Shown here: positions 94-56,835 of the stretch, piece by piece
Layout of the letters: every line of letters starts with the position of its first letter
How positions within the stretch are numbered: position 1 is the first letter of the stretch
Origin: Candidatus Poribacteria bacterium
GTDB lineage: Bacteria; Poribacteria; WGA-4E; WGA-3G
Direction of reading: 5' to 3'
NCBI GenBank assembly: GCA_965215265.1
Contig: OZ244048.1
Location: 4,224,001 to 4,288,000 of the forward strand
DNA length: 64,000 bases
Made by a program: the position numbers and the translations under genes
The notes under the pieces: generated by a model
The model's database searches: none
What the model was told of the DNA's origin: nothing
What the model saw: only the letters and a program-made list of their open reading frames with translations

Positions 94-686
94 ACAGGAG
101 CAGCGTTGTAAAATCCTAACCTTTGATGGTATGGAGATAGACAAAAATTAGATTTTTAAAGACATTACCTAGTTAACCTCCGACGAGATTTACACACGAG
201 TTATCATTACATACGCGGTGATAGTACGGAGATATACAAAAAACGAGATTGACACAGGAGCAGCGTTGTAAAATCCTAACCTTTGATGGTATGGAGATAG
301 ACAAAAATTAGATTTTTAAAGACATTACCTAGTTAACCTCCGACGAGATTTACACACGAGTTATCATTACATACGCGGTGATAGTACGGAGATATACAAA
401 AAACGAGATTGACACAGGAGCAGCGTTGTAAAATCATAATCTTTGATGGTACGGAGATAGACAAAAATTAGATTTTTAAAGACATTACCTAGTTAACCTC
501 CGACGAGATTTACACACGAGTTATCATTACATACGCGGTGATAGTACGGAGATATACGAAAAAACGAGATTTACACACGAGTTATCATTACATACGCGGT
601 GATAGTACGGAGATATACAAAAATACGAGATTTACACAGTCATTTACACAACATCAGCCGTTGGAGGGCTGAAATATACTAAAAAT
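94..686 (+). repeat. Foldback-repeat locus 1: three tandem 160-bp units followed by extra ~60-bp arms
   Basis: ACAGGAGCAGCGTTGTAAAATC recurs at 94, 254 and 414 (period 160). Each unit holds arms of the type CGAGATTTACACACGAG...GTACGGAGATATACAAAAA. Confidence 0.95.
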
Positions 687-700
687 TTGGAGGAATAACA

Positions 701-1510
701 GTGCAGATAAAATCGGCATTAGTCTCAGAAAGACTTGAACGTGTGGAACATGATCTGCGCGAAGTCGGATTCCACATTATTAAGAATGTCATTACTGTTG
801 AAGAAGCGGACGCGGCGCGCGAAGCAATCTGGAAACTAGTCGACCAGGATATCGCTAACGGACATGACCACAGCTACGGGAACGGGAAAATCCGGCGCGT
901 CTGGGGAATTGTTGGCAAATCTGCCATCTTCCGAAAACTCATTCAGCACCCAACCGTCATAGCCGTATGGAAAAGAATGTTGGGCGAAGATGTTATTGCA
1001 TCCACTTTTACCGCCAACATTGTCGGACCCGACGCACCAGAAGGGGGCTGGCATATCGACTATCCCTATTGGGCGATGCAGCCACCGTTTCCATCGGGCA
1101 CCTTGACTGGACAGACGGTATGGATGTTGGATGACTTCACGGAAGAAAACGGCGCAACGGCGTGCATTGCAGGCTCACACAAAACACTCCGCCGCCCAGA
1201 ACTAGGCGAAGCAGAGGGGCTCGAAAAGACAGTAGCTGCCGCACCAAAAGGCTCAATCCTGTTTACCAACGGAGCAATATGGCATCAATCATGCCCGAAT
1301 CTTACTGATACACCACGTGTTGGATTGCTCGGTATGTATAACCGTTCTGTTATCTATCCACAAGAGGATATGCCTCGACAACTGAGCGATGCTGAACTAA
1401 CTGCTGAAACTGAGATACTAAAACAGTTGTTAGGTAGAAATATCCCTTTCCGGGATCCAGACCACGGCCACAATTGGCATCGAACGGAAAGTGGATTCCG
1501 GGCTGAGTGA
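701..1510 (+). CDS. Phytanoyl-CoA dioxygenase (PhyH) family 2OG-Fe(II) oxygenase
   Basis: WHID (HxD) motif, LDDFTEENGAT..IAGSH and distal WH. GGAGG RBS before the GTG start. Confidence 0.9.
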   Translation: MQIKSALVSERLERVEHDLREVGFHIIKNVITVEEADAAREAIWKLVDQDIANGHDHSYGNGKIRRVWGIVGKSAIFRKLIQHPTVIAVWKRMLGEDVIASTFTANIVGPDAPEGGWHIDYPYWAMQPPFPSGTLTGQTVWMLDDFTEENGATACIAGSHKTLRRPELGEAEGLEKTVAAAPKGSILFTNGAIWHQSCPNLTDTPRVGLLGMYNRSVIYPQEDMPRQLSDAELTAETEILKQLLGRNIPFRDPDHGHNWHRTESGFRAE

Positions 1511-1595
1511 AAGCAACATGCCTAAAAACAGAAGGTGCCGGTTATTCTAATGTATTGCGATTTCCTATTGTCATGTGATATACTCTATAATTAGA

Positions 1596-1763
1596 TTCGT
1601 ATATTTAAGCGCGTTACCTACTGATGTTTTGATAAACCTCGCACAAATCTCGCCAGAGCCTTTGATGTGTTGACTTCAAAAGACTATACCTAAGTCATCT
1701 CCGACGAGATTTACACACGTATCAGCAAAACGTAAGCGTTGATAGTATGGAGATATAGAAAAA
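1596..1763. repeat. Foldback-repeat locus 2: single complete ~170-bp element (left arm, core, right arm)
   Basis: TTCGTATAT...ACAAATCTCGCCAGAG, then the core, then CTCCGACGAGATTTACAC...GGAGATATAGAAAAA. Ends just before the ATG at 1765. Confidence 0.9.
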
Positions 1764-1764
1764 T

Positions 1765-2814
1765 ATGCCTACAGTCTCTCACACTGTTCTCAGAAAATTC
1801 ACGTATGACATATACTGCGCCGCTGGCGGAACCGAGGAAGATGCAAAAATAGTCAGCAACCACGTCGTCGATTCCAATCTGGCCGGACACGATTCGCACG
1901 GGGTGATTAACGCACCAAACTACATCGGAGGGATGAAAGGCGGACCCGCTGCTGATAAGTTAGAAGTGGTACGGGATAGTCCCGCAGCTACCGTCATTAA
2001 CGCAAACGGGGCATTGGGAATGGTTGCAGCACGCAAAGCGATGGAGCTCGCTGTTGAGAAAGCAGGAACCTGTACCATCGGTGCTGTTGGTTTACATCGG
2101 TGCGGACATGCCGGACGGATGGGTGAATACCCACCGATTGCTGCGAAGGCCGGAATGATTGGCATTGTGCTATTAAATGGGGGCGGAAGGTTTATGCATC
2201 CACATGGCGGCACTTCACGCCGATTACCACCGAACCCAATCGCGATATCTGTGCCTCGTAAAAATGGATCACCGCTCCTGCTTGATATGACGTTGAGCGT
2301 TGTCGCAGGCGGGAAGTTACTTGTCCAAACCGCACGTGGTGAAGACATACCTGACGGGTGGATGATTGATGCAGACGGCAATCCCATAACAGATCCAGTC
2401 GCATTTCGAGAACGCCCGGATGACACAGCTGTGATGCCACTCGGAGGTTTTCAGTTTGGACACAAAGGATTCGGCTTGGCTGTCATGATTGATGCAATCG
2501 CCGGCGGACTCTCCTGGGCCGGATGCAGTCGCGAACAACCGACCCGCGGGGCAAGCGGCATCATGATGTTTGCAATTAATATTGACAATTTTATCCAACT
2601 AGCCTATTATGAAGAAGAGATTGAGTACCTTGTCGAGTGGATTAAATCCTCTACCAAACTTCCCAACGTTGACGAAATCTACGTCCCTGGGGAGTTCGAG
2701 GAACGGAGCCGTGAACGGAGACTCAAAGAAGGTATTCCAATTGAGGCGACAACGTGGCGGCGGCTTGTTGAAGCTGCAGAACATCACGGTGTCAAACCAC
2801 CGGTAGTCCTATAA
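1765..2814 (+). CDS. Ldh_2 family malate/L-lactate-type oxidoreductase
   Basis: NLAGHDSHG, H.GR.GEY, NPIA, GHKGFGL and VPGE motifs. Confidence 0.9.
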   Translation: MPTVSHTVLRKFTYDIYCAAGGTEEDAKIVSNHVVDSNLAGHDSHGVINAPNYIGGMKGGPAADKLEVVRDSPAATVINANGALGMVAARKAMELAVEKAGTCTIGAVGLHRCGHAGRMGEYPPIAAKAGMIGIVLLNGGGRFMHPHGGTSRRLPPNPIAISVPRKNGSPLLLDMTLSVVAGGKLLVQTARGEDIPDGWMIDADGNPITDPVAFRERPDDTAVMPLGGFQFGHKGFGLAVMIDAIAGGLSWAGCSREQPTRGASGIMMFAINIDNFIQLAYYEEEIEYLVEWIKSSTKLPNVDEIYVPGEFEERSRERRLKEGIPIEATTWRRLVEAAEHHGVKPPVVL

Positions 2815-7968: not shown

Positions 7969-7992
7969 TGCAGAAATATACAGTTTAGTATC

Positions 7993-8411
7993 TTTTCGTC
8001 TACAGGAGCCCTACAAAGGCTGCTGCAATATTAAAACCTTTACAAATCTCGCTCTTTTGTCTACAGGAGCCCTACAAAGGCTGCTGCAATGTTAACCCCT
8101 TTACAAATCTTGTCAGCGCCTTTCGATGTTTTGATTTTTAAATAACGACATTACCTAAGTCATCTCCGACGAGATTTACACACGAGTTATTATTACATAC
8201 GCGGTGATAGTACGGAGATATACGAAAAGACGAGATTTACACACGAATTATTATTACATACGCGGTGATAGTACGGAGATATACGAAAAGACGAGATTTA
8301 CACACGAATTATTATTACATACGCGGTGATAGTACGGAGATATACGAAAAGACGAGATTTACACACGAGTACTCATTACATACGCGTTGATGGTACGGAA
8401 ATATACAAAAA
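7993..8411. repeat. Foldback-repeat locus 3: two left arms, core and four tandem 61-bp right arms
   Basis: CGAGATTTACAC starts at 8170, 8231, 8292 and 8353. Left arms CTACAGGAGCCCTACAAAGGCTGCTGCAAT occur twice. Confidence 0.95.
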
Positions 8412-11510: not shown

Positions 11511-11943
11511 TTTCGTATTTTTGTATATTTCCGTACCATCATCGCTGATGTTTTGATGGCTCGTGTTGTAAAGTTATTAACATTGCAGTGGCAGGATAGG
11601 TATTCTGCCATCTATAGATTTTGATAACCTTAGCACAAATCTCGCCGGAAACTACTTAAGGCATAGTCTTTAAAGTCAAAGCATAAACGGCTCAGGCGAG
11701 ATTTACACACGAGTACTCATGACATAAGCGTCGATGGTACGGAGATATACGAAAAAAGCATTGTGGGGCTCCAGTATACAAAAAGGCGAGATTTACACAC
11801 GAGCGATCAAAACAGAAGCAGTGATGGTACGGAGATATACAATAATACGAAAATATGATTCATAGCATCGAAAACCTCCGACGAGATTTACACAGTGATT
11901 AACATGACATCAGCCTTTTTACGGGCTCCTGTATACAAAAAAA
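11511..11943. repeat. Foldback-repeat locus 4: complex cluster of arms and core, overlapping the start of the next CDS
   Basis: A reverse arm follows the stop at 11505, then a reversed core and three or more forward arms. Confidence 0.9.
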
Positions 11944-13719: not shown

Positions 13720-13975
13720 ATAGCGTCGAAAAACTCCGACGAGATTTTTCGTATATTGCAGCCCGCAACAAGGCTGCTGCTATGCTAAGCCCTTTACAAA
13801 TCTCGCCTGAGCCGTTTATGTTTAGATTTTAAAGACATTACCTAGATAACCTCCGACGAGATTTACACAGTGATTAACATGACATCAGCCTTTTACAGGC
13901 TCCTGTATACAAAAAGACGTGATTTACACACGAGTTATCATTACATACGCGGTGATAGTACGAAGATATACAAAA
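13720..13975. repeat. Foldback-repeat locus 5
   Basis: Left arm at ~13745, core, and two right arms ending 2 nt before ATG 13978. Confidence 0.9.
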
Positions 13976-13977
13976 CT

Positions 13978-16969: not shown

Positions 16970-17451
16970 TTTTATGAATACCTTAGCACAAATCTCGTTC
17001 TTTCGTCTACAGGAGCCCGATACAAGGCTGCTGCAATGTTAAAACCTGTGAAAATCTCGCCGGAGCCGTCTGGTGCTTTGATTTTTAAAGACATACTCCG
17101 ACGAGATGTACGCAGTGATTGACACAACATCAGGCATTGTGGGGCTTCAGTATACAAAAAGACGAGATGTACACAGTGATTGACACAACATCAGGCGTTG
17201 ATGGGCTGACATATACGAAAAAACATCAGGCGTTGTGGGGCTCCAGTATACAAAAAAGACGAGATTTACATCGGAGCGCAAAAACATAACCCTTGATGGT
17301 ACGGAGATAGACAAAAAACGGATTTAACAAGACATAACCCTTGATGGGGCTGAAATAGACAAAAAAAATGATTCAATACATAAACGGCTCCGACGAGATT
17401 TACACACGAATCAGCAAAGCAGCAGCGATGATGGTACTGAAATATACGAAT
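16970..17451. repeat. Foldback-repeat locus 6: left arms, core and about six right arms or partial arms
   Basis: Repeated CGAGAT[G/T]TAC..TATAC[A/G]AAAA blocks; the last arm runs into the PorV-like CDS. Confidence 0.9.
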
Positions 17452-18517: not shown

Positions 18518-18661
18518 TTTTTGCCTACAGGAGCCCGTTAAAAGGTTGCTGCAATGCTAAGTCCTTTATAAATCGGAGTTGACACAACATAACCTTTGAT
18601 GGTACAGAGATATACGAAAGATCAAAATCATAAGCGGCGATGGTACGGAGATATACAAAAA
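18518..18661. repeat. Foldback-repeat locus 7
   Basis: Left arm CTACAGGAGCCC..GCTGCAATG plus two partial right arms GATGGTAC.GAGATATAC.AAA. Confidence 0.85.
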
Positions 18662-20348: not shown

Positions 20349-23300
20349 ATGAGTTTCCAAGAGATTATTTTAGCATTAGAAAAATTTTGGGCAGAGCAGG
20401 GCTGTCTTATCCAGCAACCTTACGATGTTGAGGTAGGAGCAGGCACGTTTAACCCTGCAACTTTTTTACGATGCCTTGGCCCCGAACCATGGCAGGCAGC
20501 TTATGTTGAACCTGTCCGCCGTCCAACTGATGGACGCTACGCCGAAAACCCTTTCCGCTTAGGAGCGTACTACCAATATCAGGTAATTTTAAAGCCCGCT
20601 CCAGAGAATGTTTTACCCCTCTATCTTCAGAGTTTACATCACCTCGGCATTTCCGCTCGCCACAACGACATCCGGTTTGTTGAGGACGACTGGGAATCTC
20701 CTACCCTTGGTGCCTCTGGCCTCGGTTGGGAGGTCTGGTGGAATGGAGCGGAGGTTACGCAATTTACCTATTTTCAGCAAATGGGCGGCATTGAACTCAA
20801 TCCGATTTGCGCCGAAATTACATACGGGCTCGAGCGCATCGCACTCTATTTGCAGGATGTCGACAGCTTCTTTAATATTCGCTGGAACGAAAACCTCTCT
20901 TATGGCGATGTCTATCGTCACAGTGAGATAGAGCACTCAATCTATAATTTCCAGCAGGCAAATGTTGAGATGCTTTTTGAACTGTTCTATACATACGAGA
21001 AAGAAACCTATGCTTGCTTGGACGGAGGATTGGTACTCCCGGCAACAGACTATGTGTTAAAGTGCTCGCATACGTTCAATATGCTGGATGCACGCGGGGT
21101 TATCAGTGTAACAGAACGTGTGAATTACATTGAACGAGTCCGGCGACTCGCCCAACAGGTCGCACGCGCTTATGTGAAACAGCGTGAAGAAATGGAGCAT
21201 CCCTTACTCGGAAAATGGAAAACCCAAGAGCCGTCCGATGTACAACACAAAACAGAGAACCCCTCCGACGAGATTTACACAAGTGACGAAAATCTAAACA
21301 GAGAACCCCTCCGACGAGATTTACACACGAATTATCAAAACAAACGCGATGACGGTACCGAGATAGACGAAAACACAAAAAACGAATTGCTTTTTGAAAT
21401 CGGTACGGAAGAAATACCAGCCAGTTACTTCCCGCCCGCATTGGAAAAACTCCGGCTTATGGCAGCCGAATCATTGATGCACCATAGGATCGAATTTGAC
21501 GAAGTCAAAACCTTTGGCACACCACGCCGCATCACACTTGCTGTTAAGGGCCTAGCAACACGTCAAAAAGATAAACAGATAGAGATAGTCGGACCCCCAA
21601 AACGTATCGCTTATGATAAAGAAGGACAACCAACCAAGGCGGCAATCGGCTTTGCCAAGACCCACGACGTGGCATTTGAAGCACTCCGTATCGTTGAAAC
21701 GCCCCGAGGCGAATACGTCGCAGTTACCAAACTCGAAAAAGGTATGCCAACCGCTGAAGTATTGAAAACGCTCATACCGGACTGGATTGAAAAACTCCGT
21801 TTTCCGAAAACGATGCGCTGGTTCAATGATGAGAAATCAAGCCGGAAACGGTTCGCACGCCCTATCCGATGGCTTGTTGCACTCTTAAACGAAAAAATTG
21901 TACCTTGCATCTACGGCTCGTTAACCGCAGGATGTCTAACGTATGGGCATCGTAACCTGCATCCAGAACCAATAATTCTTGAATCCGCTGCACTTGAGAA
22001 CTACATAACCGAATTGCGGAAGGCAAATGTAATCGTCCATCCAGAGGAACGGCGTCAGACAATCAAAAACCAACTCCTGAATATTTTAGAGGCAGAAAAG
22101 TGTCTCACTACAATTGATGAAGAATTATTGGATACAGTCAATTACTTGGTGGAAAACCCACAACCTATTGTAGGAAGTTTCAGCGAATCGCACTTAGTGT
22201 TACCACCTGAAGTATTGATCACCGCTATGAAGAAGCATCAACGCTATTTCCCGATGTGGAAATTGGGAGAGTCGTCCTCGAGCACCATACAAAACAGATT
22301 CATTACTATTTCCAATGGAACAGATGGGAATTTCGATGGCGTTCGTCACGGAAACGAACGCGTTTTACACGCTCGACTCAATGATGCCGAGTTTTTCTAC
22401 CGCGAGGACCAGAAAACTCCTTTTGCCGATAAAGTAGAACGGTTAGGGACCGTTGTTTTCCACGCGAAACTCGGTTCATTGCTGGATAAAGCCAAACGAC
22501 TTAAGGAATTGGTTCGGTTTATTGCGACAACACTACAGCTACCAGAAACAACGTGCTGCCACGCAGAACGTTGTGCTTGGCTCTGCAAGGTAGACTTGAC
22601 AACACAGTTGGTGATTGAATTTCCTTCCTTGCAAGGCATCGCAGGCAAATATTATGCACAGAACGCCGGTGAGACAGCACTTGTAGCGGACGGTATTGCT
22701 GAACATTATCAGCCACTCGGCGCGGATACTGCGAGCCCCGAAACAGAAGTCGGCGCACTTGTAGCCGCAGCCGATAAAGTGGATACCATCGTTGGATACT
22801 TTGGAATTAAGGAACGTCCGACAGGTTCACAGGACCCGTACTCGCTACGTCGGCATGCCCTGGGTGCCCTCCGTATTCTACAAGAACGGCGGCTGCCTCT
22901 CTCGTTCGATGCTGTTGTCAAAAAGGCAATATCGCTCTACAAAGTTGAATTGGCGACGGATACTGAAACAAGTGTCCTCGGTTTTATCAAGGAACGGCTG
23001 CGAGGCATCCTCCAAACACAAGGAAACTACGCCCCGGATGTGGCAGATGCCGTACTGGCAGTAAGCCATATCAATGTGCCGGATGTTTTAAAGCGCGCTG
23101 AGGTACTTGCAAAGTTTAAGCAGACCGCAAACGAATCAAAAAAAAGTTATAGTGACACGCACAGTCAGTTGACTTTGAATTTTGAACGCGTCTATAATGC
23201 ACTTAATCGAGTGTTGCGAATTTTACCGGAGACACCGCCGATAGATGTAGATGAAACACTTCTAATTGATGATGCCGAAAAAAGCCTGGCCGAGTTTATT

Positions 23301-27639: not shown

Positions 27640-27904
27640 TTTTTCGTCTACTGTTTTCGTTCTTTCGTCCACAGGAGCCCGATACAAGGCTGCTGCAATG
27701 TTAAAACCTGTATAAATCTCGTCGGAGCCTTCTGATGCTTTGACTTCAAAAGACTATGCTTAAGTAGGCTCTGGCGAGATTTATCTATAGATTGGCAGGT
27801 AAAAGGTAATCTTTTCTCATGGACAGAGAAAGATACCTATCCTGCCAACACACGACTCATCAAAACAGAGACGTTGATGGTACGGAGATATACAAAAAGA
27901 CGAG
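27640..27904. repeat. Foldback-repeat locus 9 with nested 65-bp hairpin insertion
   Basis: Left arm, core and right arm; the right arm is split between CGAGATTT and ACACACGA by 27783-27847. Confidence 0.9.
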
Positions 27905-30241: not shown

Positions 30242-30484
30242 TTTTTTTCGTATATCTCCGTACCGTCAACGCTTTTTCGTATACTGGAGCCCTACACCGC
30301 CTGATGTTTTTTCGTATAGTGCAGCACAACACCAATCTATGCTATGATAACCCTTGTACAAATCTCGTCGCCCACCCACCCAAATCCTTTCTATGCTATG
30401 AATCTAAACATCTAAAGGCTCCGGCGAGATTTGTAAGGGGTTTAATATAGCAGCAACTAGCATTGGGCTCCTATATACAAAAAG
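30242..30484. repeat. Foldback-repeat locus 10 between divergent genes
   Basis: Three TTTTCGTATA-initiated arms or partial arms, a core fragment AATCTAAACATC, and an outward arm ending TATACAAAAA. Confidence 0.9.
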
Positions 30485-33310: not shown

Positions 33311-33315
33311 ATCCT

Positions 33316-33765: not shown

Positions 33766-33782
33766 TGCAGACGGAGTGTCCT

Positions 33783-34366: not shown

Positions 34367-34431
34367 TCTATTTACACGTCAAATCCGCATGCTAAAACGT
34401 GAGGGCACATCAGCGAGGAGAAAGGCACGAC

Positions 34432-36198: not shown

Positions 36199-36350
36199 TG
36201 CCGAGCGGCTGTCCGATGGTAGACGCGTTTTTCATAGAGAGAAGCGATCTATTTTAGTATCGTTTTTCCGGGAATGTTAATATCAGACCGATTGCCAGAC
36301 AGCCGCCGACATTGAAATACATTGCCCCAGAATTAAGGAAATAAGCACGC

Positions 36351-36929
36351 ATGGTCGCGAACATCATAACGCTCTGTCGCCTATTGTTAACCTTTCTCGT
36401 TGTGATTCTATTTCGACTCCATCGTATACTTGACATCGCCCTAATTTTCACAATCACCGGTATCTTCATACTTGATGCCCTGGACGGCTACATCGCCCGA
36501 AAACGCCACGAAACTTCTCAACTGGGTGAGATCCTTGATACTGTATCCGACAGAATTATTGAAAACACGTTCTGGATTTATTTCGCTGTGGTAGGCGATA
36601 TTCCACTCTGGATGCCACTCGTAGTCATGGCACGCGGTTTTATCACTGATGCCTCGCAACACCTGTCTGGATACCCGCAAAGCGGGTGGAGATCCGCCCT
36701 CACCCGCTCACGTATCAGTCGTGCCCTATCTGGCATGACCAAGATGCTCGCTTTTACCGGTCTCGCCAGCGTTCCTGTTTTCAATAACGACACCCTCGAA
36801 ACCGTCAGCTTCATCCTCGCCACGTTTGCTGTTGGCTTTTGTCTGCTTCGTGGGCTCCCTTTCTTCTTCATCAGTAAACCGCTATGTCAACCAAACACCT
36901 CAAAGACATCGCGTTCTTCTGCGATGTGA
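36351..36929 (+). CDS. CDP-alcohol phosphatidyltransferase family protein
   Basis: ANIITLCR and LDALDGYIARK...GEILDTVSDR motif. Confidence 0.88.
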   Translation: MVANIITLCRLLLTFLVVILFRLHRILDIALIFTITGIFILDALDGYIARKRHETSQLGEILDTVSDRIIENTFWIYFAVVGDIPLWMPLVVMARGFITDASQHLSGYPQSGWRSALTRSRISRALSGMTKMLAFTGLASVPVFNNDTLETVSFILATFAVGFCLLRGLPFFFISKPLCQPNTSKTSRSSAM

Positions 36930-37004
36930 ACGCTTGAGTGTCTCATCTACGTAGGGGTTGTTCTTCTTTGCGCTATCCTATCCGATCAACGGTATTGTTT
37001 GCAT

Positions 37005-37125
37005 TTTATAGTTAACCTAAAAATATCTTGACATTTGCTTTGACTTGTGTTAGGTTCATTGTATTATGAGATATTCAATAGATTTACGAAAACGCGTCCT
37101 GGATTTTATTCATAACAGAGGCTAA
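37005..37125 (+). mobile_element. Possible IS630-family left-end remnant
   Basis: Mini-ORF 37066-37125 MRYSIDLRKRVLDFIHNRG resembles the IS630 transposase N-terminus (YSxDLRxRV); a TATA precedes the putative end. Confidence 0.5.
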
Positions 37126-37178
37126 GTGGCACGCTGCAGTCCATTTTTCAATTTCATTAGCCAGTGGAGGTTCACAAT

Positions 37179-38993: not shown

Positions 38994-38996
38994 CAC

Positions 38997-39076
38997 AACC
39001 TAAAGTCGCTCTGGCGAGATTTGTATAGGCGTTATGAAAGCAGCAGCCTTTATGATACTTCAATAGACAAAAAAAA
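38997..39076. repeat. Foldback-repeat locus 11 (single arm)
   Basis: CTCTGGCGAGATTTGTA..CAGCAGCC..TAGACAAAAA. Confidence 0.8.
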
Positions 39077-41882: not shown

Positions 41883-42745
41883 ATGAATTGGGAATTGGAA
41901 ACAGCTGTCTCTGATGAACAAGTTGAATTTTACAGAGAAAATGGATACCTCAAATTCGGTAGAATTTTTACCAAACCCGAAGTCGATTTTTCGTCTAGTG
42001 CAGCCCAATAAAGGTTTATGCTATGTTAAAGCCCTTACAAATCTCGTCAGAGCCGTCTTAGGTTTAGAATCTAAACATCTTTGAACTTCGAGAGTATGTC
42101 GATGAAATGATTGCGAATTTGCCGGACGGAAAACGACCGGAACAGATGGATGTCCCGCACTTTGAGCACCCTTTCCTCTTCAAATATCTTACCCATCCAC
42201 GTGTCCTAAAGGTAATAGAACGGTTTATCGGACCGGATATCGTGCTCTGGTCTAGTCACTTCATTAGCAAGCGCGAAGGAGATGGCATGGAAGTTCCGTG
42301 GCATCAGGACGGTGTCTATTGGGGAAAAATGCTTGAACCGATGAACGTCATCACTATGTGGTTGGCCGTAGATGAATCCACGCTCGAAAATGGATGTATG
42401 CGCGTCATCCCCAAAAGTCACCAATTACGGAACCGCCGGTATGAATCCGTGAATAGGAAAAATAACCTCTTTGGAAGCGAAATTATTCATGAAGACATGG
42501 CCGCATCCCAAGCGGTTGACTTGGAATTGCAAGTCGGCGAGTCTCATTTTCATGATGCCTGGACAATTCACAACTCTTCTGCTAATACGTCACAGAAACG
42601 GCGATGCGGTTACACAATGCGTTACATGCCAGCCGATGTCCGGTACCCAGGAGCAGAATGGCGACGCACACACTACATCTATCTCTTGCAAGGCGAAGAT
42701 CGAACGGATGGGTTTAATACCTACGCGCCCGTGCCAGTTTCATAA
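41883..42745 (+). pseudogene. PhyH family dioxygenase interrupted by a 95-bp repeat insertion
   Basis: AAGGAG RBS and ATG 41883 give MNWELETAVSDEQVEFYRENGYLKFGRIFTKPEVD. After the insert the gene resumes ELREYVDEMIANL..WHQD.. The insert carries TAA at 42009. Confidence 0.85.
41988..42082. mobile_element. Foldback-repeat locus 12: left arm plus palindromic core inserted in phyH
   Basis: TTTTCGTCTAG..ACAAATCTCGTCAGAGCC..GTTTAGAATCTAAACATC. Confidence 0.9.
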
Positions 42746-42750
42746 CCGGC

Positions 42751-42826
42751 TTTTGTATATCTCCGTACCATCAACGCTTAGGTATTGACAACTCGTGTGT
42801 AAATCTCGTCGGAGATTCCTTAGGTT
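42751..42826. repeat. Foldback-repeat locus 13 (reverse right arm after the phyH stop)
   Basis: TTTTGTATATCTCCGTACCATC..GTGTGTAAATCTCGTCGGAG. Confidence 0.9.
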
Positions 42827-42941
42827 ATGATTCCTCAATCACTTTTCTCGCAAACTCCTCAATCTCCGCAGGATCCCCACCTTGATATAGAACTACCGTG
42901 GAACGCTCTCACAATTTCCATCAGGTTGACACATTATAGTA

Positions 42942-49120: not shown

Positions 49121-51336
49121 TTATTCTTGTGGAATATATAAAGCCCCTGTGCCCTGTGGACTCTTTCCATCAGTACCACCCCAGACAATCATTTTATCTT
49201 TTGCCCAGATTGCGGTGTGAAGTACTTTCCCATCCGGAATACCGTCAGTGGGTAATGGATGCCACATGTCCGTTGTAGATTTATACACACCGCCGGTTTT
49301 TAGTGGCTTGCCTTTACTACCAAAACCTCCCCAGACAATCATGCCGATACTGCTCCACACGGCACGATGCCCAAAACGCTCAGCCGGCGCGTTTCGCATC
49401 GAAATAGAGTGCCAGGTGTCTGTTTCCGGATCGTACATTCTACCGGTGTTGAGAGAACGGGTGCCGTCTGTGCCGCCCCAAATAAGCAGGCGTGAACCAC
49501 TCCACACCGCCGTGTGGCCGAATCTGCCCTCCGGCGCACCGGTTATACTCATTGGATGCCACGTATCCGTCGCAGGATCATACACTCCGCCTGTGTTGAC
49601 ATACCCTTCTCCTGTCGTACCACCCCAAACGAGCATTGCAGAGCCGTTCCACACAGCAGTATGTCCGCTGCGCGCATTCGGCGCACGTTCGCTAGAAATA
49701 GGCACCCACGTGTCACTGTTCGGCGTATAAATAGCCCCTGTCTGCACCGGTGTTTCGGCTGCATTCAAACCACCCCACACGATGAGCTCTGTTCCTGTCC
49801 ATACCGCACCGTGAAGAAATACCCCCTCAGGTGCTTGTGGAGCCGGTAGAGGACCCCACGTATCTGCCTGGAGTTTGTAACGCCCCCCGGTATTGAGGAA
49901 CCCTGCCTGCGATGCACCGCCCCAGACGAGCATCTCGGCACCCGTCCATACCGCAGTATGCCCGCCACGAGGAGCAGGGGCTTCAACTACAGAAAGCGGT
50001 TGCCAACTCTCTGTTTGTGGCGTGTAACGCCCCCCGGTATTTAGATAACCGGCTTGTGTGATGCCACCCCAAATTAGCATCTGATGTCCTGTCCACACCG
50101 CGGTATGTCCACCCCGAGCGGACATACCCTGTCCAGACAGGAGGTCGATCCACCGCCCCGTTTCCGGTTCATATCGACTCCCTGTATCCAGATACTGTTG
50201 CTTGTCTGTTCCACCCCAGACAAACATCTCTTTACCAGTCCAAACAGTCGTATGCCCAATGCGTCCTTGTAGACGTGTCGTCACTGGCATAGGCATCCAA
50301 GTATCCGTTCCCGGGTCGTATATGCCGCCTGTCTTTAGAGGCTGTCCGTTCCCGCCAAATCCACCCCAGATGAGCATCCTATCGCCTATCCAGACTGCAG
50401 TATGGCCCGCACGTGCCGCCGGTGCACCCTCCATAGCAAGCGGCATCCAAGTATTCGTTTCAGGACTGTATACGCCCCCGTTGCTAAGCGGTTTTGCGCA
50501 TCGTTAAGTCCACCCCACACAACCATTACACCAGAAGACCCGGTTTTTGCCCAAATAGCAGTATGCGCCGCACGTGGAGTTGGCGCGTTAAGTGTTGAAA
50601 GCCGATGCCATTTATCCGTTTTTGACTCATAAACTCCACCGGTTTGGAGAGGCTGCCTCTTCGCATCAAACCCACCCCACACCAGCATGTGGATGCCAGT
50701 CCAAACTGCTGTGTGGCTTATACGCGGCGCAGGCGCTTGTTCCGTCGAAACCGGCTCCCACCGCGCTGCTCCCGGAAGATAACTGCCTGCTGTACTGAGA
50801 AATTTATTTTTCCCATCCCATCCACCCCAGACAATCATCTCTTCTCCATTCCAGACCGAGGTATGACCGCCACGTGCTTCAGGGGCATTTTCGGTTGTGA
50901 GGATTTTCCACCGACGTTTGCCCGGCATGTATATACCACCGTTTTTCAAAGGAGTATCATCCGACGAAAAACCACCCCAAATGATGAGTTGCTCGTCTGC
51001 CCAGACTGCACCATGGTCGCCACGTGCTTCTGGGGCTCCATGAGCCGGAAGAGGATGCCACACATCTGTGGCAGGATTGTAGCTGCTACCGTCCTGTAAC
51101 TGCCCCGTTGCATTAACCCCACCCCATACGATGACCTGTTTGCCTGTCCATACTGCGGTATGGAGCCATCTTGCACTCGGTGGCCCAGCCGCAACGGGCT
51201 CCCATGTCCCTTGTGAATCAACTGGAAGAGGGATAACGCATAAAAGCAAAAAGAAAAGCAATATCAACCCAGATTTAAAGCGCGTTACACAGACATAGAT
51301 AAAAAAAAACGGCGGGATACGCCAAGGTAGGTTCAT
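49121..51336 (-). pseudogene. Kelch-repeat beta-propeller protein split by a 1-bp frameshift
   Basis: Two overlapping ORFs carry HTAVWTGxxMxxWGG repeats. One extra base in the C5 run at 50475-50479 restores TGGVYSPETNTWMP. Confidence 0.8.
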
Positions 51337-52880: not shown

Positions 52881-52951
52881 TGCGTGAAAACTATCAGCTT
52901 CTTAGAACAATCCAATAACAAAGGCGCGTATCACGCATAGTGAACCCCCTC

Positions 52952-55732
52952 TTAGAACAGTGTCTGCCTGCGTTGCGCTAAGCCCATCTCCTGCTCTATA
53001 TCTCGCCACTCCGACACGAGCAGGTTGTAGTCTGACGCACGTTCCGCATCTCCGCACCTCTCATAGTGGGCATACAACACGCGCGCTAAACGCACCGCTG
53101 ACTCGCTCTCTCGCATCCCAAGCCCTACCCTAACGCACCCCTGAATCCCACCGCTAAACTCTATACCCGACAGATGCCAAACCATCCGCTGACACCCCTC
53201 CCACGCCGTCATCCTTTCACTGTGCTCGCGCGCTGCCAACTCTCCGCCTCGCAGCAACCGAACCTGACCTCGTTCCGCAAGCAGCACCTTGTCGTGCAGT
53301 GCGGCGATGTCTACGCCTTTCGCTTTTGACAGTCCATCGGCATCCCCGAAAGTGCCTACCGTGTAATCGTGCTGCTGCAGCCACGTCAGACAGAACTGAC
53401 TCTCCGCATCCAGTTCGCCTGTCTCTTTTTCATGATAAGCCACGATTTCGTGATTGATGTGCCGAAGCGCCTCGCGTATAGAAATGAGTTCTCCGCTGAT
53501 TCGCGTCACCTGGCGATAGCGGGAGTAAACAGCCATCCCTGGGCCGATGGCGGCTTGCGCCAGATCAACAGGTCTGATGTTTGCGGTGCGTGTGAGCCTG
53601 TCAAGCGCGGGTGGCATTGCGGCTTTGAGTTCTTTCAAGAAGTCGTTACGGATAATGATAGGTGCCTCTTCCGGGCGTGGGCGGCACACCAGCAGAATAG
53701 AGGTGGCAAGCGCATTTACCTGCGTCTTGAGTGCTTTCGTTTGTTCGGTGCGTATGGGCCAGGTAGCCACAATTTGAAAGCCTGCATTGACGAGCGCAGC
53801 GAGCATCGTCTCCCAGCCGGTGGAGGTGTTATCCTCGCGTTTCGCGGCCTGCTGTTTGTAGGCGTAGAAGATGAGCGTAGGAAACTTGTCAGAGCAGTCC
53901 TGCCGCAGCCGCAGCAAGGCTTTGCCGAGCAGTTCTTCAAACCGCTCTCGCGCCCCCTCAAACCTGGGCGCAGCAATAATCTCTTCACTCTTCGGTGTCA
54001 TCATTCCGCCGAACAACTCTGGATAAGTGTCGCGAAGCAACGGGCGCAGCCAGACATAGAAAAAGTCTGACAAATCGGCGTAGTTAATGTTGTCGTAGTA
54101 GGGCGGATCTGTGACGATAACAGGTCTCTCCTTAGCATGTGGTGTGTTGGTAGCGTCTGCCTGATACACGGTGCCGCTGTTCGCGGTGGCGGGTAAATGC
54201 TCAATCACTTTTGCAATCCACTCCACCTGTGCCATCCAGTTCTGTGTTGAATTTGAGAACGGGTTGCCTTCCACGAAGTCCCATATCATTGGAATGGCTT
54301 GGCGTATGAAGGTAGGGGCAATAAAGGTTGATGAGTTTCCCCACAATGCAAAACTGCAGTGTGCCTCAGCAGTTCTCCCGATAGCGAGTGCGAGATAGGT
54401 ACAAACCGCATCGGCGTAGCTTTCCTCTGCGCCGTCTTGTAGGATACGATGGCGGACTTCTGGCAACAGGTCGCTGAAAGTGGTTAGTGCCGTGAGTTGC
54501 CGCTCAGTGAAGAGTTCATGCCAATGTGTCATGCCGTAACCGAGACTGCTAACCTTTGGCGTATTCATTATGGCTTGCCTTGGCCGCCATTTTGGAATAG
54601 CAGCCATTGCCACTTGAAGATGTTCGTCAGTAGGCGACAGGAACAACTTTTTGCGTTGGGTGGGTGGGCTCTCGGCCACTATCGCCGTCATCATCTCCCC
54701 CATCTTCCCGCGTTTCGCTTGCTCGCGAAGATAAGCCAATTTAACTGCCGTGCCGCACGCGCAGCAGTGCGCGCCCGTACGCCTCACTGTCGGCATCGGC
54801 ACACCCGTCTTTGAAGATTGCACCACCCACGATAGCGTGTTGGTGTCTCTGTCCACTACAGGCCTTGTCCAATATTCATTGCCACGCCTCTTTGACAACT
54901 GAAAGCTTTTCATCAGCGGCTTCTGGAGGCCGCAGGCAGGGTTGCTACACGGCACCGTGCGCGCCCACAGCCACGCCACAACGGTGGCAGCCGTGCCGTC
55001 TCGCAACCGCACTGGCGGATAGAGGTGCCCGATGCGTTGGTGGGCTTGTTCACGCAGCCACTGGCCGTAGTGGCGGATGTCGGCAGCCAAGCCCGCAGTG
55101 CCACGCCAACTCTGCTCTGTGACGATGCTATTGGCTGAATCCGCTTTGAGATAGAGCGGTGGATGGTTATGAAATCTCGGCGGCAATTCAATCATCGCCT
55201 TCGTAAGCAGCACTGGGAGTGGATTTAGATCCGAGCCGCGGGCATGCACGCCCAATCGTTGTGCTTCAAGGGGGATGGAGCCCCCGCCACAGAACGCATC
55301 GTAGACAGCAGGACCGTGTTCTCGCAGATAGTTTAGCACCGCCCCCGGTTCATTCTCAAACCGCTGCCGAAAAGCCGTCAACTCTTCGCCGTTGTTGCGT
55401 GCCACAGACAAAGCAATCTCGTAGCGTGCCTCGGCTAACAAGTTGTCATCGGTGCTATTTTTCCAAACCACAAGCCGGCTAAGCAGGCGATGGAGCCTCT
55501 CGCGTTCAGCGTTCTGTGCGGTTTCAGTTGGGAACTCGGCGGGGCAGTCGCCCGGATCATCTACAAGGCAGGCGAAGATGACGGCGCGACAAGCAGCCAG
55601 CGGGCGGCGCGCCCAATAGCGGTGCAGCGTTGAAGGGTGTCCATGTGTCAGCGAGGCATCCTTTGCCGATTCCGCGTTGATAGCTGGCAGCGGGATATTC
55701 ACCTCAATCAGTTTTTTGCGATAAACGGGCAT
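52952..55732 (-). CDS. DUF1156-containing adenine DNA methyltransferase with Zn ribbon
   Basis: KKLIEV..LHRYWARRPLAACRA, FCGGGSIPLEAQRLG, CxxPxC and TDPPYYDNINYADLSDFFYVWLR. Confidence 0.9.
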   Translation of the reverse strand: MPVYRKKLIEVNIPLPAINAESAKDASLTHGHPSTLHRYWARRPLAACRAVIFACLVDDPGDCPAEFPTETAQNAERERLHRLLSRLVVWKNSTDDNLLAEARYEIALSVARNNGEELTAFRQRFENEPGAVLNYLREHGPAVYDAFCGGGSIPLEAQRLGVHARGSDLNPLPVLLTKAMIELPPRFHNHPPLYLKADSANSIVTEQSWRGTAGLAADIRHYGQWLREQAHQRIGHLYPPVRLRDGTAATVVAWLWARTVPCSNPACGLQKPLMKSFQLSKRRGNEYWTRPVVDRDTNTLSWVVQSSKTGVPMPTVRRTGAHCCACGTAVKLAYLREQAKRGKMGEMMTAIVAESPPTQRKKLFLSPTDEHLQVAMAAIPKWRPRQAIMNTPKVSSLGYGMTHWHELFTERQLTALTTFSDLLPEVRHRILQDGAEESYADAVCTYLALAIGRTAEAHCSFALWGNSSTFIAPTFIRQAIPMIWDFVEGNPFSNSTQNWMAQVEWIAKVIEHLPATANSGTVYQADATNTPHAKERPVIVTDPPYYDNINYADLSDFFYVWLRPLLRDTYPELFGGMMTPKSEEIIAAPRFEGARERFEELLGKALLRLRQDCSDKFPTLIFYAYKQQAAKREDNTSTGWETMLAALVNAGFQIVATWPIRTEQTKALKTQVNALATSILLVCRPRPEEAPIIIRNDFLKELKAAMPPALDRLTRTANIRPVDLAQAAIGPGMAVYSRYRQVTRISGELISIREALRHINHEIVAYHEKETGELDAESQFCLTWLQQHDYTVGTFGDADGLSKAKGVDIAALHDKVLLAERGQVRLLRGGELAAREHSERMTAWEGCQRMVWHLSGIEFSGGIQGCVRVGLGMRESESAVRLARVLYAHYERCGDAERASDYNLLVSEWRDIEQEMGLAQRRQTLF

Positions 55733-55771
55733 AATGATGCCTTAGTCCCTCTCCCGACAGGGCTAGCGTTC

Positions 55772-56707
55772 CTATCTATTTAGGCTTCGTGCGAAACTAT
55801 CAAGACTCTCTGCTTGAACGGCGGCCAGGTGCAGCTGCTCAAGGTGTTGTAAATCGGTAATGCGTTGCAACGCCGGTGCTAACGCCTTGACAGTATTCGG
55901 TGAAAACTTAGCGCTCAGCACCGCCAATGTATTTTTGATGGTGCTCTCTTTCGCACCTTGTTCTATGCCGCGTTCTATGCCTCGTTCTATACCTTGTTCT
56001 ATACCTTGTTCTATACCTTGCGCGATAAATTCATCGCGTAACAGTTGGAAATATTTAGATTCTCGCATCAGTCCCTCCGGTATCAGACGTTTGAAAAGCG
56101 ACGCGTCATGCACAATACCCCCGAAAACCGACAGCGCACACAGTAAATCTCCTTGCGCCCCCTCATCCAAATCCGTTCCTGTCGTCGCGGTTATACATCT
56201 TTGAATCCAAGCCGCCGAGTCCAAACCTTCAGGCGGTTTCATCAATGGTGTGAGCGGCAACAGCCCAGGCGCAGCCAACGCCAAAATAGATTCACCTGCT
56301 ACTTCTATCAGACGGATAACCTTATACCGCAACCGATAGGCATAGCCACACAGACTATATTCATACACACCCCCATCCCTTCTACCCGCTGACGGATGAA
56401 AGTACAGCACATTCGAATACACCGGCAGCTGGTATTCCCCGAGCAGATACCCGTGATACGCTGCGTTTCGTGCCCACATCGGTTTGGGTGTGCTATCTCG
56501 CACCTGCAACTCTATGTGTAGGATAGCCTCTTCGTTATCAATACGGATACGCTTGGTGCTATCGACACGCTGCCCGATAACCACCTGTTGTTCCGTGTCA
56601 AGGTTTTCAAGCACCTCAACATTGTCCACCCCGAGTATAAACCGTGAGATGTCGTCGGCATGCTCCGTCAACAACTCTTTTGCCATATTATCATAGTCCT
56701 GTGCCAT
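55772..56707 (-). CDS. Rpn-family recombination-promoting nuclease / putative transposase (PD-(D/E)XK)
   Basis: YDNMAKELL, RVD..ILHIELQ, LPLTPLM, MRES and GIEQ repeats. Start placed at ATG 56707. Confidence 0.8.
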   Translation of the reverse strand: MAQDYDNMAKELLTEHADDISRFILGVDNVEVLENLDTEQQVVIGQRVDSTKRIRIDNEEAILHIELQVRDSTPKPMWARNAAYHGYLLGEYQLPVYSNVLYFHPSAGRRDGGVYEYSLCGYAYRLRYKVIRLIEVAGESILALAAPGLLPLTPLMKPPEGLDSAAWIQRCITATTGTDLDEGAQGDLLCALSVFGGIVHDASLFKRLIPEGLMRESKYFQLLRDEFIAQGIEQGIEQGIERGIERGIEQGAKESTIKNTLAVLSAKFSPNTVKALAPALQRITDLQHLEQLHLAAVQAESLDSFARSLNR

Positions 56708-56713
56708 AAAGTT

Positions 56714-56743
56714 ATTATACACCAATGCGTTAAAAAAAGTCAA
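56714..56743 (-). promoter_or_regulatory. Putative sigma70 promoter of the rpn-DUF1156 unit, near-leaderless
   Basis: Minus strand TTGACT, 18 bp, TATAAT, ending 6 nt before the ATG. Confidence 0.6.
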
Positions 56744-56744
56744 G

Positions 56745-56835
56745 TTTTCGTATATTTCAGCGCTATAAAGGCTGCTGCTCTATTAAAACCTTTACAAACC
56801 TCGTCAGAGCCGTTTATGTTTTGAATCTAAACATC
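56745..56835. repeat. Foldback-repeat locus 14: left arm plus core, same extent as the phyH insert
   Basis: TTTTCGTATATTTCAG..ACAAACCTCGTCAGAGCC..GAATCTAAACATC. Confidence 0.88.

Follow-up and report, generated by a model that had tools for sequence, protein, structure and literature searches.

Mosaic repeats built from 61-bp arms in the intergenic gaps of a sponge-symbiont-like bacterium

The window, a stretch of 64,000 nucleotides analysed at its full length, raises the question of what the short inverted repeats between its genes are and how they came to be there. It belongs to the genome of a sponge-symbiont-like bacterium (G000; a single contig, 95% complete, with gene calls from a crude longest-ORF caller), whose intergenic gaps are filled with hundreds of small non-coding repeats made of 61-base modules.

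Architecture of units and loci

The initial annotation described about 14 loci of one architecture with arms of about 60 bp. An iterated nhmmer profile also counts 14 loci in the window, comprising 43 units (Table 1), but four of them are half-elements of one arm and half a core, and the arm is more exactly 61 bp long and often in tandem. Genome-wide, the same profile detects 861 units of 61 bp in 423 loci. Neighbouring units on the same strand are spaced by 61 bp in 83 pairs and by 60-62 bp in 111, and Tandem Repeats Finder (TRF) reports period-61 arrays at 503-638, 7991-8110, 8168-8411, and 17100-17222. The repeats are confirmed to be real, well in excess of chance expectation: the inner motif ACAAATCTCG, with at most one mismatch, occurs 14 times in the window (shuffle mean 4.9, maximum 11; 0 of 100 shuffles reach 14), and the whole-unit pattern, CGAGATTT followed after 31-33 nt by GNNCNNNNNTAKACRAAA, has 19 matches there against 0 expected. 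Contigs from four other public short-read runs break at the repeats.

Loci share one order, in which left arms precede a core of 41-50 nt and inverted right arms follow it; the opposite order is almost absent. Among the 423 loci, 155 are strictly (-)n(+)m, 255 hold units of a single orientation, and 13 are mixed. When 662 genomic units are aligned, the conserved columns are CGAGATTT, CA[T/G]xAGC, GTACGGAGA or GGGCTCC, and TATAC, the very blocks that had been named as fixed from the window. The best-conserved part of the unit is its outer end (G43, C46, and TAKACRAAAA), so that elements carry terminal inverted repeats, TTTTYGTMTA and TAKACRAAAA. The junction between arm and core carries CGTC/GACG, arranged as AAATCT-CGTC-GGAG ... 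CTCC-GACG-AGATTT.

Table 1. Repeat loci in the window, with the program that delimited each
Position	Strand	Feature	Basis
42..684	.	Composite locus upstream of PhyH gene (701-1510); left arm 42-93	nhmmer
94-581		Part of 42..684: 160-bp unit, triplicated	TRF period 160 x3.0
178-242, 338-402, 498-562, 564-623, 625-684		Part of 42..684: right arms	nhmmer; TRF period 61 x2.2
1596..1763	.	Full element: left arm 1596-1655, core, right arm 1698-1763	nhmmer
7992..8411	.	Gap between recO and TonB-dependent receptor gene: two left arms (7992-8051, 8054-8115), then core	
8163-8411		Part of 7992..8411: four right arms, period 61	nhmmer; TRF 61 x4.0
11518..11941	.	Gap between receptor gene and PMT_2 glycosyltransferase gene: one partial left arm, three right arms	nhmmer
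13746..13977	.	Left arm, core, two right arms; end of last unit 4 nt ahead of ATG	nhmmer
17000..17450	.	Left arm, core, six right arms (full or partial)	nhmmer; TRF periods 61, 35, 96
18518..18661	.	Degenerate locus upstream of sulfatase gene: one left and two partial right units	nhmmer
21237..21373	+	Linker inside fused glyQ-glyS frame (20349-23528): duplicated inner-end fragment, one full sense unit	nhmmer
27661..27898	.	Left arm, core, right arm (loc349)	nhmmer
30274..30484	.	Divergent gap: two left arms, core, one right arm	nhmmer
38995..39073	+	Half-element: half core, one right arm	nhmmer
41988..42080	-	Half-element: one left arm, half core; contains GTTTAGAATCTAAAC	nhmmer
42748..42835	-	Half-element in convergent gap: type-A left arm, half core	nhmmer
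56744..56835	-	Half-element: left arm, half core	nhmmer

Several of these loci can be set against G001, a genome of the same genus. The composite locus at 42..684 corresponds to an orthologous gap of ~39 bp there, and the element at 1596..1763 is missing from the orthologous site; in G000 this element separates the ATG of an Ldh_2 gene from a conserved extended -10-like box, and its outer end GGAGATATAGAAAAAT adjoins that ATG, at 1765. The unit at 21237..21373 is read in frame within the glyQ-glyS linker, and in G001 the two genes are fused in the same way, with a linker that is 66 nt shorter and lacks the unit. The locus at 30274..30484 folds as a long DNA hairpin (DNA fold z = -2.69), and the half-element at 56744..56835 lies directly upstream of the start of a multi-copy gene of 323 aa (55772-56743, minus strand). 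The right arm of 27661..27898 is broken at ~27792-27846 by a different hairpin repeat of ~55 bp.

Relatives, gain of copies, and pairing of arms

Whether the family is lineage-specific, as the initial annotation held, depends on how widely it is drawn. The strict pattern has 319 matches in G000 and none in any of 150 further genomes from the order, and the repeat matches no Rfam family, whether the cut-off is the gathering threshold or an E value of 0.1. In a wider sense it is not confined to G000, as diverged relatives in G001 and G004 place it within an older superfamily: CTCCGACGAGATTT, with at most one mismatch, is found 380 times in G000, 228 times in G004, and 40 times in G001, and 0-9 times in each of the other 98 genomes of the family, versus 0-8 for a reversed-pattern control. 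Units in G004 and G001 are 61-63 nt long and have the same ends and the motif CTCCGACGAGAT, while their remaining sequence differs.

That the elements are non-autonomous agrees with their lack of coding capacity and with the six candidate arm-gene-arm arrangements, none of which holds a repeated gene; in the three that were examined, what lies between the arms is a single-copy gene, a different repeat family, or unique sequence. The further suggestion of a recognizing protein or nuclease encoded elsewhere, whether a RAYT, IS, or tyrosine recombinase gene with arm-bearing ends, found no counterpart in G000. Searches of this genome gave 0 matches to Y1_Tnp (PF01797; RAYT and IS200/IS605-type), with a control search positive in 6 of 14 reference genomes, and 0 each to IS110, TnpB, and rve. 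DDE_3 and DDE_Tnp_1 are present only as relics, none of them bracketed by arms, and the sole Phage_integrase (tyrosine recombinase) match is broken by a stop. No classical transposase occurs among the multi-copy gene families of G000, nor was a parent IS with these ends found in it. A single weak match to DDE_Tnp_1 has two units in its vicinity, at a distance of ~70-150 nt.

Comparison of empty and filled sites, which had been proposed at the outset, reveals gains at sites that are empty in G001 or in paralogous copies. At all 55 loci whose two flanks were found in 400 kb of G001 the G000 unit is absent, and the profile has only three matches in these 400 kb, weak and partial ones to G001's own diverged units elsewhere. 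Clean filled/empty pairs (the paralogs loc41, loc215, and loc165, and loc44 versus G001) have the exact boundaries TTTTYGTATA...TAKACAAA. None of them has a target-site duplication, a statement that covers ~4 clean sites, most intergenic alignments of G000 and G001 being too diverged to set boundaries. The pieces are thus shown to have been inserted precisely, without target-site duplication, and we infer transposition from the empty sites and not from a known mechanism.

Once in place, arms multiply by tandem duplication, and the tandemly duplicated unit is bounded by a short direct repeat, ACGA(G/A)A. Recent activity is indicated by tandem neighbours, 40 of 144 of which reach an identity of 90% or more, and by the 361 ungapped units, 36 of which recur unchanged at a different locus and a further 34 with a single base changed. 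Arms also swap segments, which yields the chimeras noticed from the start. Subtypes diverge by ~40%, which is large for a family missing from the orthologous sites of a congener, and therefore the subtypes either predate the expansion or come from outside.

The description of the elements as foldbacks applies to part of their length. Regular pairing is limited to the inner 10-16 bp and the core, and the two arms of a locus mostly differ in type: in 165 pairs of arms around one core, A-A pairs number 5 against 21.4 expected (Fisher p = 4e-8), and variable stem positions pair below the expectation under independence (at position 5, 27 Watson-Crick pairs versus 43 expected). Pairing between arms is avoided, not maintained. 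The proposed structural or spacing constraint gains support in that two other genomes keep the ~61-63-nt unit and CTCCGACGAGAT, but it does not extend to a conserved secondary structure of the unit, for which RNAalifold predicts 0 pairs and no consensus hairpin.

Gene context and competing explanations

The loci are unevenly placed with respect to genes. Co-directional gaps hold 287 of 344 loci, compared with 76% of all adjacent gene pairs, and divergent gaps hold 23 of 344, compared with 12%. Arms are more numerous on the start-facing side in 172 loci and less numerous there in 54 (p = 7e-12), and of the single-orientation loci 127 lie sense to transcription and 34 antisense to it (p = 8e-14). 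Type-A (GGAG) arms are more often start-facing (odds ratio 2.0, p = 2.6e-4), and outer ends that bear a Shine-Dalgarno sequence adjoin start codons. Of 293 start-facing outer ends, 107 have an ATG no more than 12 nt away, compared with 47 of 215 end-facing ones, and an ATG follows the outer end directly in 38 of 328 versus 7 of 237 (p = 1.2e-4). This abutment is present in G004 and G001 too. Within genes, 15 of the 861 units lie deep inside long reading frames, 14 of them co-oriented, with in-frame copies in the glyQS linker, a gcvP linker, and a uvrA-like frame; rpoC contains a unit fragment. An open sense frame 3 occurs in 48% of units versus 24% of shuffles, but there is no family-wide open-frame constraint.

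We consider it probable (roughly 0.6) that these repeats are a selfish, mosaic family of small, non-coding, non-autonomous mobile elements of the REP/BIME/NIME/RPE kind. The basic piece would be a half-element of ~86-90 nt, in which an arm of 61 nt, with TTTTYGTMTA outermost and AAATCTCG innermost, is joined to a half core that begins TCGGAG or TCWGAG. Two half-elements placed head to head would give a full element, whose inner 10-16 bp (CTCGTCGGAG...CTCCGACGAG) and core form an imperfect hairpin. A trans-acting enzyme, encoded beside no copy, presumably recognizes CTCCGACGAGAT and the outer end, and survival of copies may then be set by selection on gene expression and DNA stability. Under such selection long perfect palindromes would be purged, leaving heterotypic arms; copies would persist mainly in sense orientation in transcribed, co-directional gaps; arms with GGAG and an A-rich tail would persist beside start codons, where they replace the native leader; and copies within genes would remain only where they are stop-free, in frame, and placed in a tolerant linker. 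Host function or transcription-coupled insertion would explain the sense bias and the proximity to start codons just as well as selection after insertion does.

Host function is the basis of one alternative, in which the elements are domesticated expression modules kept as portable 5' leaders or translation-initiation cassettes, their core hairpin serving as an mRNA stabilizer or as an insulator between the genes of an operon. The sense bias, the excess of start-facing arms, the enrichment of GGAG arms and abutting ATGs at starts, the recurrence of that abutment in G004 and G001, and the replacement of a native leader by the element at 1596-1763 between a promoter-like box and an ATG all speak for it. 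We nevertheless regard it as unlikely, given that the same genes work without units in G001 at 55 of 55 sites, that copy and arm numbers vary freely, that 237 of 565 ends face gene 3' ends, and that type A accounts for only 132 of 293 outermost start-facing arms. GGAG also lies 11-12 nt from the ATG, and the usual spacing is shorter than that. A different and rather unlikely proposal is that the G000 family and its relatives in two genomes, which keep only CTCCGACGAGAT, the outer ACRAAAA end, and the length of ~61 nt, are moved by a mechanism undescribed for bacterial small repeats, such as transcription-coupled or single-strand-directed insertion by an unrecognized nuclease, possibly among the 24 + 9 Rpn/YhgA-like genes. 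Such insertion would fit the absence of Y1, IS110, TnpB, and rve, the lack of target duplication, and the bias to the sense strand and to positions before starts; if true, it would spread ready-made 5' leaders genome-wide.

Rpn-like genes also figure in a distinctly unlikely reading of the 61-bp modules as phased sites for a nucleoid-associated protein, gyrase, a site-specific recombinase, or a nuclease (for example, an expanded Rpn/YhgA-like PD-(D/E)XK family) that spread by recombination and not by transposition. Unit length is kept at 61-63 nt in three genomes while sequence turns over, each unit contains the similar blocks GAGATTTAC and GAGATATAC 42 bp apart, chimeric arms record recombination between units, and the Transposase_31 (Rpn-like) matches in G000, G004, and G001 (24, 8, and 0) rank as the CTCCGACGAGATTT counts do. 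However, G001 has the motif family and no such match, G003 and G006 have 7 and 10 matches but CTCCGACGAGATTT counts at background only, and in G000 a unit lies within 300 bp upstream of 0 of 24 Rpn-like genes and downstream of 1 of 24 (background 8-9%). The single, stop-interrupted tyrosine-recombinase match also counts against it, and homologous recombination alone would not produce precise insertions at unrelated sites. An integron attC or other recombination-site array was rejected as well; units follow one another without a break and lie between conserved housekeeping genes. Finally, structured non-coding RNA genes or a degenerate CRISPR-like array, with the period of 61 nt read as a 29-nt repeat and a 32-nt spacer, would account for a conserved junction of ~29 nt beside a more variable middle of ~32 nt, for the mostly sense units, and for the one column pair that covaries (GC 14 versus CG 12). 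This very improbable reading is already largely refuted: the middle is homologous between copies and falls into a few subtypes, unlike unique spacers, hundreds of loci have their arrays inverted about a core, a hand-drawn 6-bp stem pairs in only 57% of cells, and the whole element folds as RNA with z = -0.91, in line with the RNAalifold and Rfam results above.

Comparison with described repeats

The selfish-family reading draws on its likeness to several described classes. BIMEs (bacterial interspersed mosaic elements) are characterized as intergenic mosaics in which a repeated motif alternates in orientation and its copies are set apart by characteristic linkers (PMC2817692), and heterodimers are reported to predominate (PMC3733652). 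The present clusters resemble the BIME and REP/REPIN clusters of enterobacteria and pseudomonads in both respects, and also in occupying transcribed, co-directional gaps and in occurring both as singlets and as head-to-head doublets. They differ in having a 61-bp motif that is not itself a hairpin, instead of a GC-rich palindrome of 20-40 bp, in forming same-orientation tandem arrays of fixed 61-bp period, and in lacking the RAYT/Y1 transposase of REP/REPIN systems in G000. The 5' GTAG tag of REPs is also missing; by eye, type-B arms have GTAG 3' of a small hairpin, in the wrong polarity.

The class of CGTC-tagged repeats includes Neisseria dRS3/NIME clusters and Rickettsia RPE-4 and RPE-6, and is defined by an unpaired terminal CGTC followed by a stem of 8-9 bp that opens with A-T pairs, a loop of 4-5 nt, and a tail of 3 nt (Di Nocera et al. 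2013, PMC3733652). Both families lack a dedicated transposase, form head-to-head dimers that are often heterodimers, have intragenic in-frame copies and large mosaic intergenic clusters (in Neisseria), and carry the CGTC/GACG tetranucleotide, which stands here at the arm-core junction. Compared with that definition, CGTC lies here in the paired inner stem, is followed by GGAG and the 41-50-nt core and not by an 8-9-bp stem, loop, and tail, and belongs to long arms of unrelated sequence.

Like IS-derived MITEs (Correia/NEMIS, RUP), the elements are small, non-coding, and abundant, have conserved terminal inverted ends, and are intergenic, where they may affect the expression of neighbouring genes; unlike them, they have no target-site duplication at clean sites and no parent IS in G000, and they are modular, with half-elements and arrays of arms. 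RPEs reportedly insert in frame into proteins, and the copies in linkers of housekeeping proteins, which leave these proteins unbroken, are comparable. RPEs nevertheless have another architecture and apparently no sequence relation to this family, in which few units are deep in reading frames. As the described class of mosaic REP/BIME/NIME/RPE-type repeats covers the behaviour seen here, the novelty claimed for the family becomes smaller. What is new here is the heterotypic arms, the sense bias, the start-abutting ends, the in-frame copies, and the recurrence of CTCCGACGAGAT with a length of ~61 nt in two further genomes.

Anatomy and pairing of the 61-bp repeat units

The intergenic repeats described in the initial annotation are real: the window holds 14 occurrences of the inner motif versus 4.9 expected and 19 of the whole-unit pattern versus 0 expected, and an iterated nhmmer profile places 43 units there, grouped in 14 loci. 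The source genome (G000) is a single contig of 4.83 Mb with 48% GC, and its gene content, with sulfatases and PhyH, FGE-sulfatase, HEAT, Kelch and TPR proteins, is compatible with a Poribacteria sponge symbiont. In total, the same profile identifies 861 units in this genome (plus strand, 428; minus strand, 433), at a density that peaks at 4.0-4.6 Mb, window included. The family takes up about 65 kb and breaks short-read assemblies at every locus; contigs from four DNA runs end at the repeats, and the apparent "joints" are repeat-mediated chimeras.

The unit is an arm of 61 bp. Same-strand neighbours are spaced by exactly this length in 83 pairs and by 60-62 bp in 111, and Tandem Repeats Finder reports arrays with a period of 61 and 2-4 copies. 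In the right-arm orientation the unit starts with GACGAGATTT and ends with TAKACRAAAA. Conservation over 662 aligned units is highest at the outer end (G43, C46, T52, A53, A55, C56, A58 and A59), and the middle is variable yet homologous among copies. Arms fall into two main types, A (terminus GGTACGGAGATATAC) and B (terminus GGGCTSNNGTAKAC), together with several minor types and chimeras. Among 423 loci, 155 follow the grammar of one or more left (-) arms, a core and one or more inverted right (+) arms, 255 have arms in one orientation only and 13 are mixed; the one-orientation loci are half-elements, consisting of an arm and half a core. When the cores (41-50 nt) are mutually oriented, each element reads CGTCGGAG...CTCWGRCG, thus the whole element is polar and able to sit either way round.

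The loci had been described as foldbacks, a description that holds only in part. The core flanks CTCGTCGGAG and CTCCGACGAG pair as an imperfect stem, and cores folded as DNA have a mean z of -3.6, with 69% of 123 cores below -2. The arms of one locus, however, are no more complementary than random pairs: complementarity identity is 0.57 within loci versus 0.61 between them, and a level of 70% is reached by 23% of random pairs but by no pair among the 24 strict within-locus ones. In addition, A-A combinations are depleted among 165 core-flanking pairs (5 observed versus 21.4 expected, Fisher p = 4e-8), and Watson-Crick pairing at variable inner-stem positions falls below independence (e.g. 27 versus 43 and 22 versus 39), thus perfect palindromes are avoided rather than maintained. 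Passages of Di Nocera et al. (PMC3733652) relate a heterodimer preference in REP families to the instability of long hairpins; by analogy, the heterotypic arms of the 61-bp family may reflect the same instability, and the family bears on why inverted partners are heterotypic. RNAalifold returned no consensus structure for the unit. A conserved unit hairpin likewise gained no support: the stem proposed from a mutual-information scan pairs in just 57% of cells, with no more than two of its base pairs kept across the arm types. Single elements gave z = -0.91 (a heterotypic one, folded as RNA) and z = -2.69 (a more homotypic one, folded as DNA).

Mobility, relatives and placement in the genome

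Comparison of filled and empty orthologous sites, suggested in the initial annotation, supports mobility. The window has a syntenic counterpart, about 80% identical, in the same-genus genome G001, and in the 400 kb of G001 compared, where both flanks could be located for 55 of the 423 source loci, the source unit is present at none of the 55 sites; the only three profile matches there are weak, partial and elsewhere, and are G001's own diverged units. Most intergenic alignments between the two genomes are too diverged to place the insert ends. Clean sites are provided by loc44 against G001 and by recent paralogous duplications within the source genome at loc41 (a full element), loc215 (a half-element) and loc165. 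At these sites inserts start with TTTTYGTATA and end with TAKACAAA or in the half core, and no target duplication is visible at these few sites. Recent copying is also evident among the units themselves: of 361 ungapped units, 70 recur at another locus with 0-1 differences, and of 144 tandem neighbours, 40 share at least 90% identity, which indicates recent duplication in place. The triplicated 160-bp block in the window is a further sign of such activity.

Relatives of the family are narrowly distributed. With a whole locus as BLAST query, 30 relatives gave no match, and a strict pattern with 319 matches in the source genome had none in 150 other genomes of the order (reversed-pattern controls, 0). 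A sequence-only covariance model gave weak matches only in G004, a further related genome, among 100 genomes of the taxonomic family. The inner motif CTCCGACGAGATTT, allowing at most one mismatch, has 380 occurrences in the source genome, 228 in G004 and 40 in G001; the other 98 genomes have 0-9 apiece, versus 0-8 in the reversed-pattern control. On this count, three genomes are positive for the CTCCGACGAGAT motif and about 98 are negative. The G004 and G001 units share a common plan of about 61-63 nt, with a GACGAGATT start, an AAAAC..CA middle and an ACRAAAA end, and apart from this plan their sequence differs from that of the source units. Their arrays have periods of 69, 87 or 91 bp (G001) and 86 or 118 bp (G004), and their outer ends abut start codons too. 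The same plan in three genomes indicates that the design is older than the species, and unit sequences and insertion sites have turned over independently among them. The conserved motif and length are the probable recognition features of the family.

Placement, judged throughout by crude gene calls, follows the direction of genes. Co-directional genes flank 287 of the 344 classifiable loci, versus 76% of all adjacent gene pairs, and divergent gaps are under-used (23 loci, 6.7% versus 12%). Within co-directional gaps, arms on the start-facing side outnumber those on the other side at 172 loci and are outnumbered at 54 (p = 7e-12); one-orientation loci favour sense over antisense by 127 to 34 (p = 8e-14), and core polarity runs along transcription in 59 versus 33 (p = 0.009). 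As regards a replication-strand explanation of the orientation bias, the GC skew of the source genome shows no clean replichores and its genes have no strand bias; the orientation bias runs with the local gene direction and probably follows local transcription. Type-A arms carry GGAG and then an A-rich tail, and they are enriched at start-facing ends (132 A : 151 B) compared with ends facing a gene's 3' end (62 A : 143 B; odds ratio 2.0, p = 2.6e-4). Within 12 nt of the outer end, an ATG is present in 107 of 293 start-facing versus 47 of 215 end-facing cases, and it comes directly after that end in 38 of 328 versus 7 of 237 (p = 1.2e-4). At the Ldh_2 gene an element has replaced the leader, and G001 keeps its native GGAGAG leader at that site. 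The sequence directly upstream of many source genes has thereby been rewritten by the family, which bears on how selection by transcription and translation shapes where repeats survive.

Copies also lie inside genes. Reading frames of at least 250 aa contain 15 units at a depth of 450 nt or more, and 14 of these have the orientation of the frame. The glyQ-glyS fusion that carries a copy in its linker is also fused in G001, with a linker 66 nt shorter and without the unit. An inter-domain linker of gcvP holds a partial unit that is absent in G001, G004 and another genome, G012; in G004 the same linker holds a different duplicated in-frame repeat (GVCYGNPRSVPAT...), thus it has been hit independently in two genera. 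A 2068-aa uvrA-like frame stays open across eight units, one whole foldback among them, and rpoC has a 42-nt outer-end fragment in a variable linker, its length differing from that in G001 by one residue. Housekeeping proteins have gained peptide segments from the family. A family-wide coding constraint was rejected (48% of units, versus 24% of shuffles, have an open sense frame 3).

Candidate mobilising enzymes and relation to known repeats

The search for a transposase or recombinase gene whose ends carry the arm gave no such gene. The source genome has no match to Y1_Tnp (RAYT), IS110, TnpB or rve, and its relics, namely four DDE_3 fragments, four weak DDE_Tnp_1 matches and one integrase match with an internal stop, are nowhere bracketed by arms, with two units at about 70-150 nt from one weak DDE_Tnp_1 match. 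Only six intervals of 0.3-6 kb are bounded by a left and a right arm, and the three examined contain a single-copy gene, another repeat family and unique DNA. An IS630-type origin is disfavoured: all the DDE_3 fragments are more than 1 kb away from any unit, and no TA duplication is seen. Transposase_31 (Rpn/YhgA-like PD-(D/E)XK nucleases) is the only transposase-like family among the multi-copy gene families of the source genome, with 24 matches there, 8 in G004 and 0 in G001; the source copies do not adjoin units, and genomes G003 and G006 have Rpn-like genes without the motif family, so that these nucleases are a weak lead at best. G001 and the source genome hold opposite sets of mobile genes, 108 TnpB (Cas12f1-like_TNB) with no Rpn-like gene in the former and the reverse, no TnpB, in the latter; together with the roughly 40 diverged units of G001, this contrast makes the pair useful for a comparative enzyme search.

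A reverse transcriptase was rejected as mobiliser because the only one in the source genome belongs to a classical diversity-generating retroelement (DGR) cassette with FGE-sulfatase targets, and adenine mutagenesis is argued against by the invariant As at the unit's 3' end. The cassette adjoins two Rpn-like genes, and FGE-sulfatase proteins form the largest paralog family of the genome (25 members). A multi-copy 339-aa gene family was rejected as master, a unit lying upstream of just 4-5 of its 9 copies. This 312-339-aa family, with one copy in the window and eight paralogs, has no Pfam family; at the C terminus it carries a FliH-like stretch similar to one in Rpn-like proteins, and two copies lie beside Rpn-like genes.

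In behaviour, the 61-bp family is a selfish mosaic repeat of the REP/BIME/NIME/RPE type. It differs from REP-RAYT systems in having no RAYT and a unit that is not a short palindrome, and from IS-derived MITEs in having neither a parent IS nor, at the few clean sites, a target duplication. It also falls outside the definition of CGTC REPs in the relevant passages of PMC3733652, although these describe shared traits, namely the lack of a transposase, heterodimers and intragenic copies. Rfam, named as a check in the initial annotation, yields no match to the family at the gathering threshold or at E up to 0.1, its sole match being a tRNA. Phage and plasmid collections have no match, viral contigs have one 18-mer match that is not a unit, and the gapped unit pattern gave at least 13 single chance matches to unrelated taxa in a collection of genome contigs. 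Full-text searches returned nothing on repeats of this sort in Poribacteria, and no paper with the motifs in a relevant context. What is new here is the genome-wide grammar, the heterotypic-arm rule, the sense bias, the clean duplication-free empty sites, the in-frame gene insertions, the transposase census and the cross-genome superfamily. The family is a clean natural case for asking how small repeats move without a visible transposase, a question equally open for CGTC-type REPs according to the same passages of PMC3733652.

Other repeats and gene families

Coordinates of features in the window and elsewhere in the source genome (G000)
Location	Strand	Feature	Detail
Window 94-581		160-bp block	Triplicated, 98% identity
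Window 1596-1763		Element replacing leader	Between conserved TGATATACT box and ATG of Ldh_2 gene
Window 21237-21373		glyQS copy	Linker of fused glyQ-glyS frame
Window 27792-27846		Second, unrelated ~55-bp hairpin repeat (TGGCAGG...CCTGCCA)	Also around G000 4515600 and 150700
Window 30524-38993		M48/BlaR1-like peptidase genes	Three tandem paralogs (582, 599, 609 aa)
Window 49121-51336	minus	Two adjacent Kelch-repeat genes	Internal period 147-150 nt (DNA direct repeats)
Window 52952-55732		DUF1156 methyltransferase gene	Adjoins gene at 55772-56743
Window 55772-56743	minus	Gene of 312-339-aa family	
G000:C1:1074972-1076333		MgtE_N-like-domain protein gene	Example of family
G000:C1:1092379-1098129		rpoC	1916 aa
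G000:C1:1416737-1420944		DGR cassette	Two FGE-sulfatase-domain genes, bAvd gene, reverse transcriptase gene
G000:C1:4152971-4153392		Third repeat family, ~123-bp period (TTTAGCCGAAAACAAC...TTTTTGTCAAACTTTTTTT)	Nested between left and right arm

The hairpin repeat of about 55 bp interrupts a unit or core of the 61-bp family, thus the repeats are nested; the third family occurs in at least 10 other places. The rpoC product has a large lineage-specific insertion of repeated HPDCPL-containing modules, common to G001. The tandem M48/BlaR1-like paralogs share DNA blocks that are 66-99% identical and have small genes in between, and the 453-aa protein family with an MgtE_N-like domain has 23 copies in the source genome at about 87-94% DNA identity.
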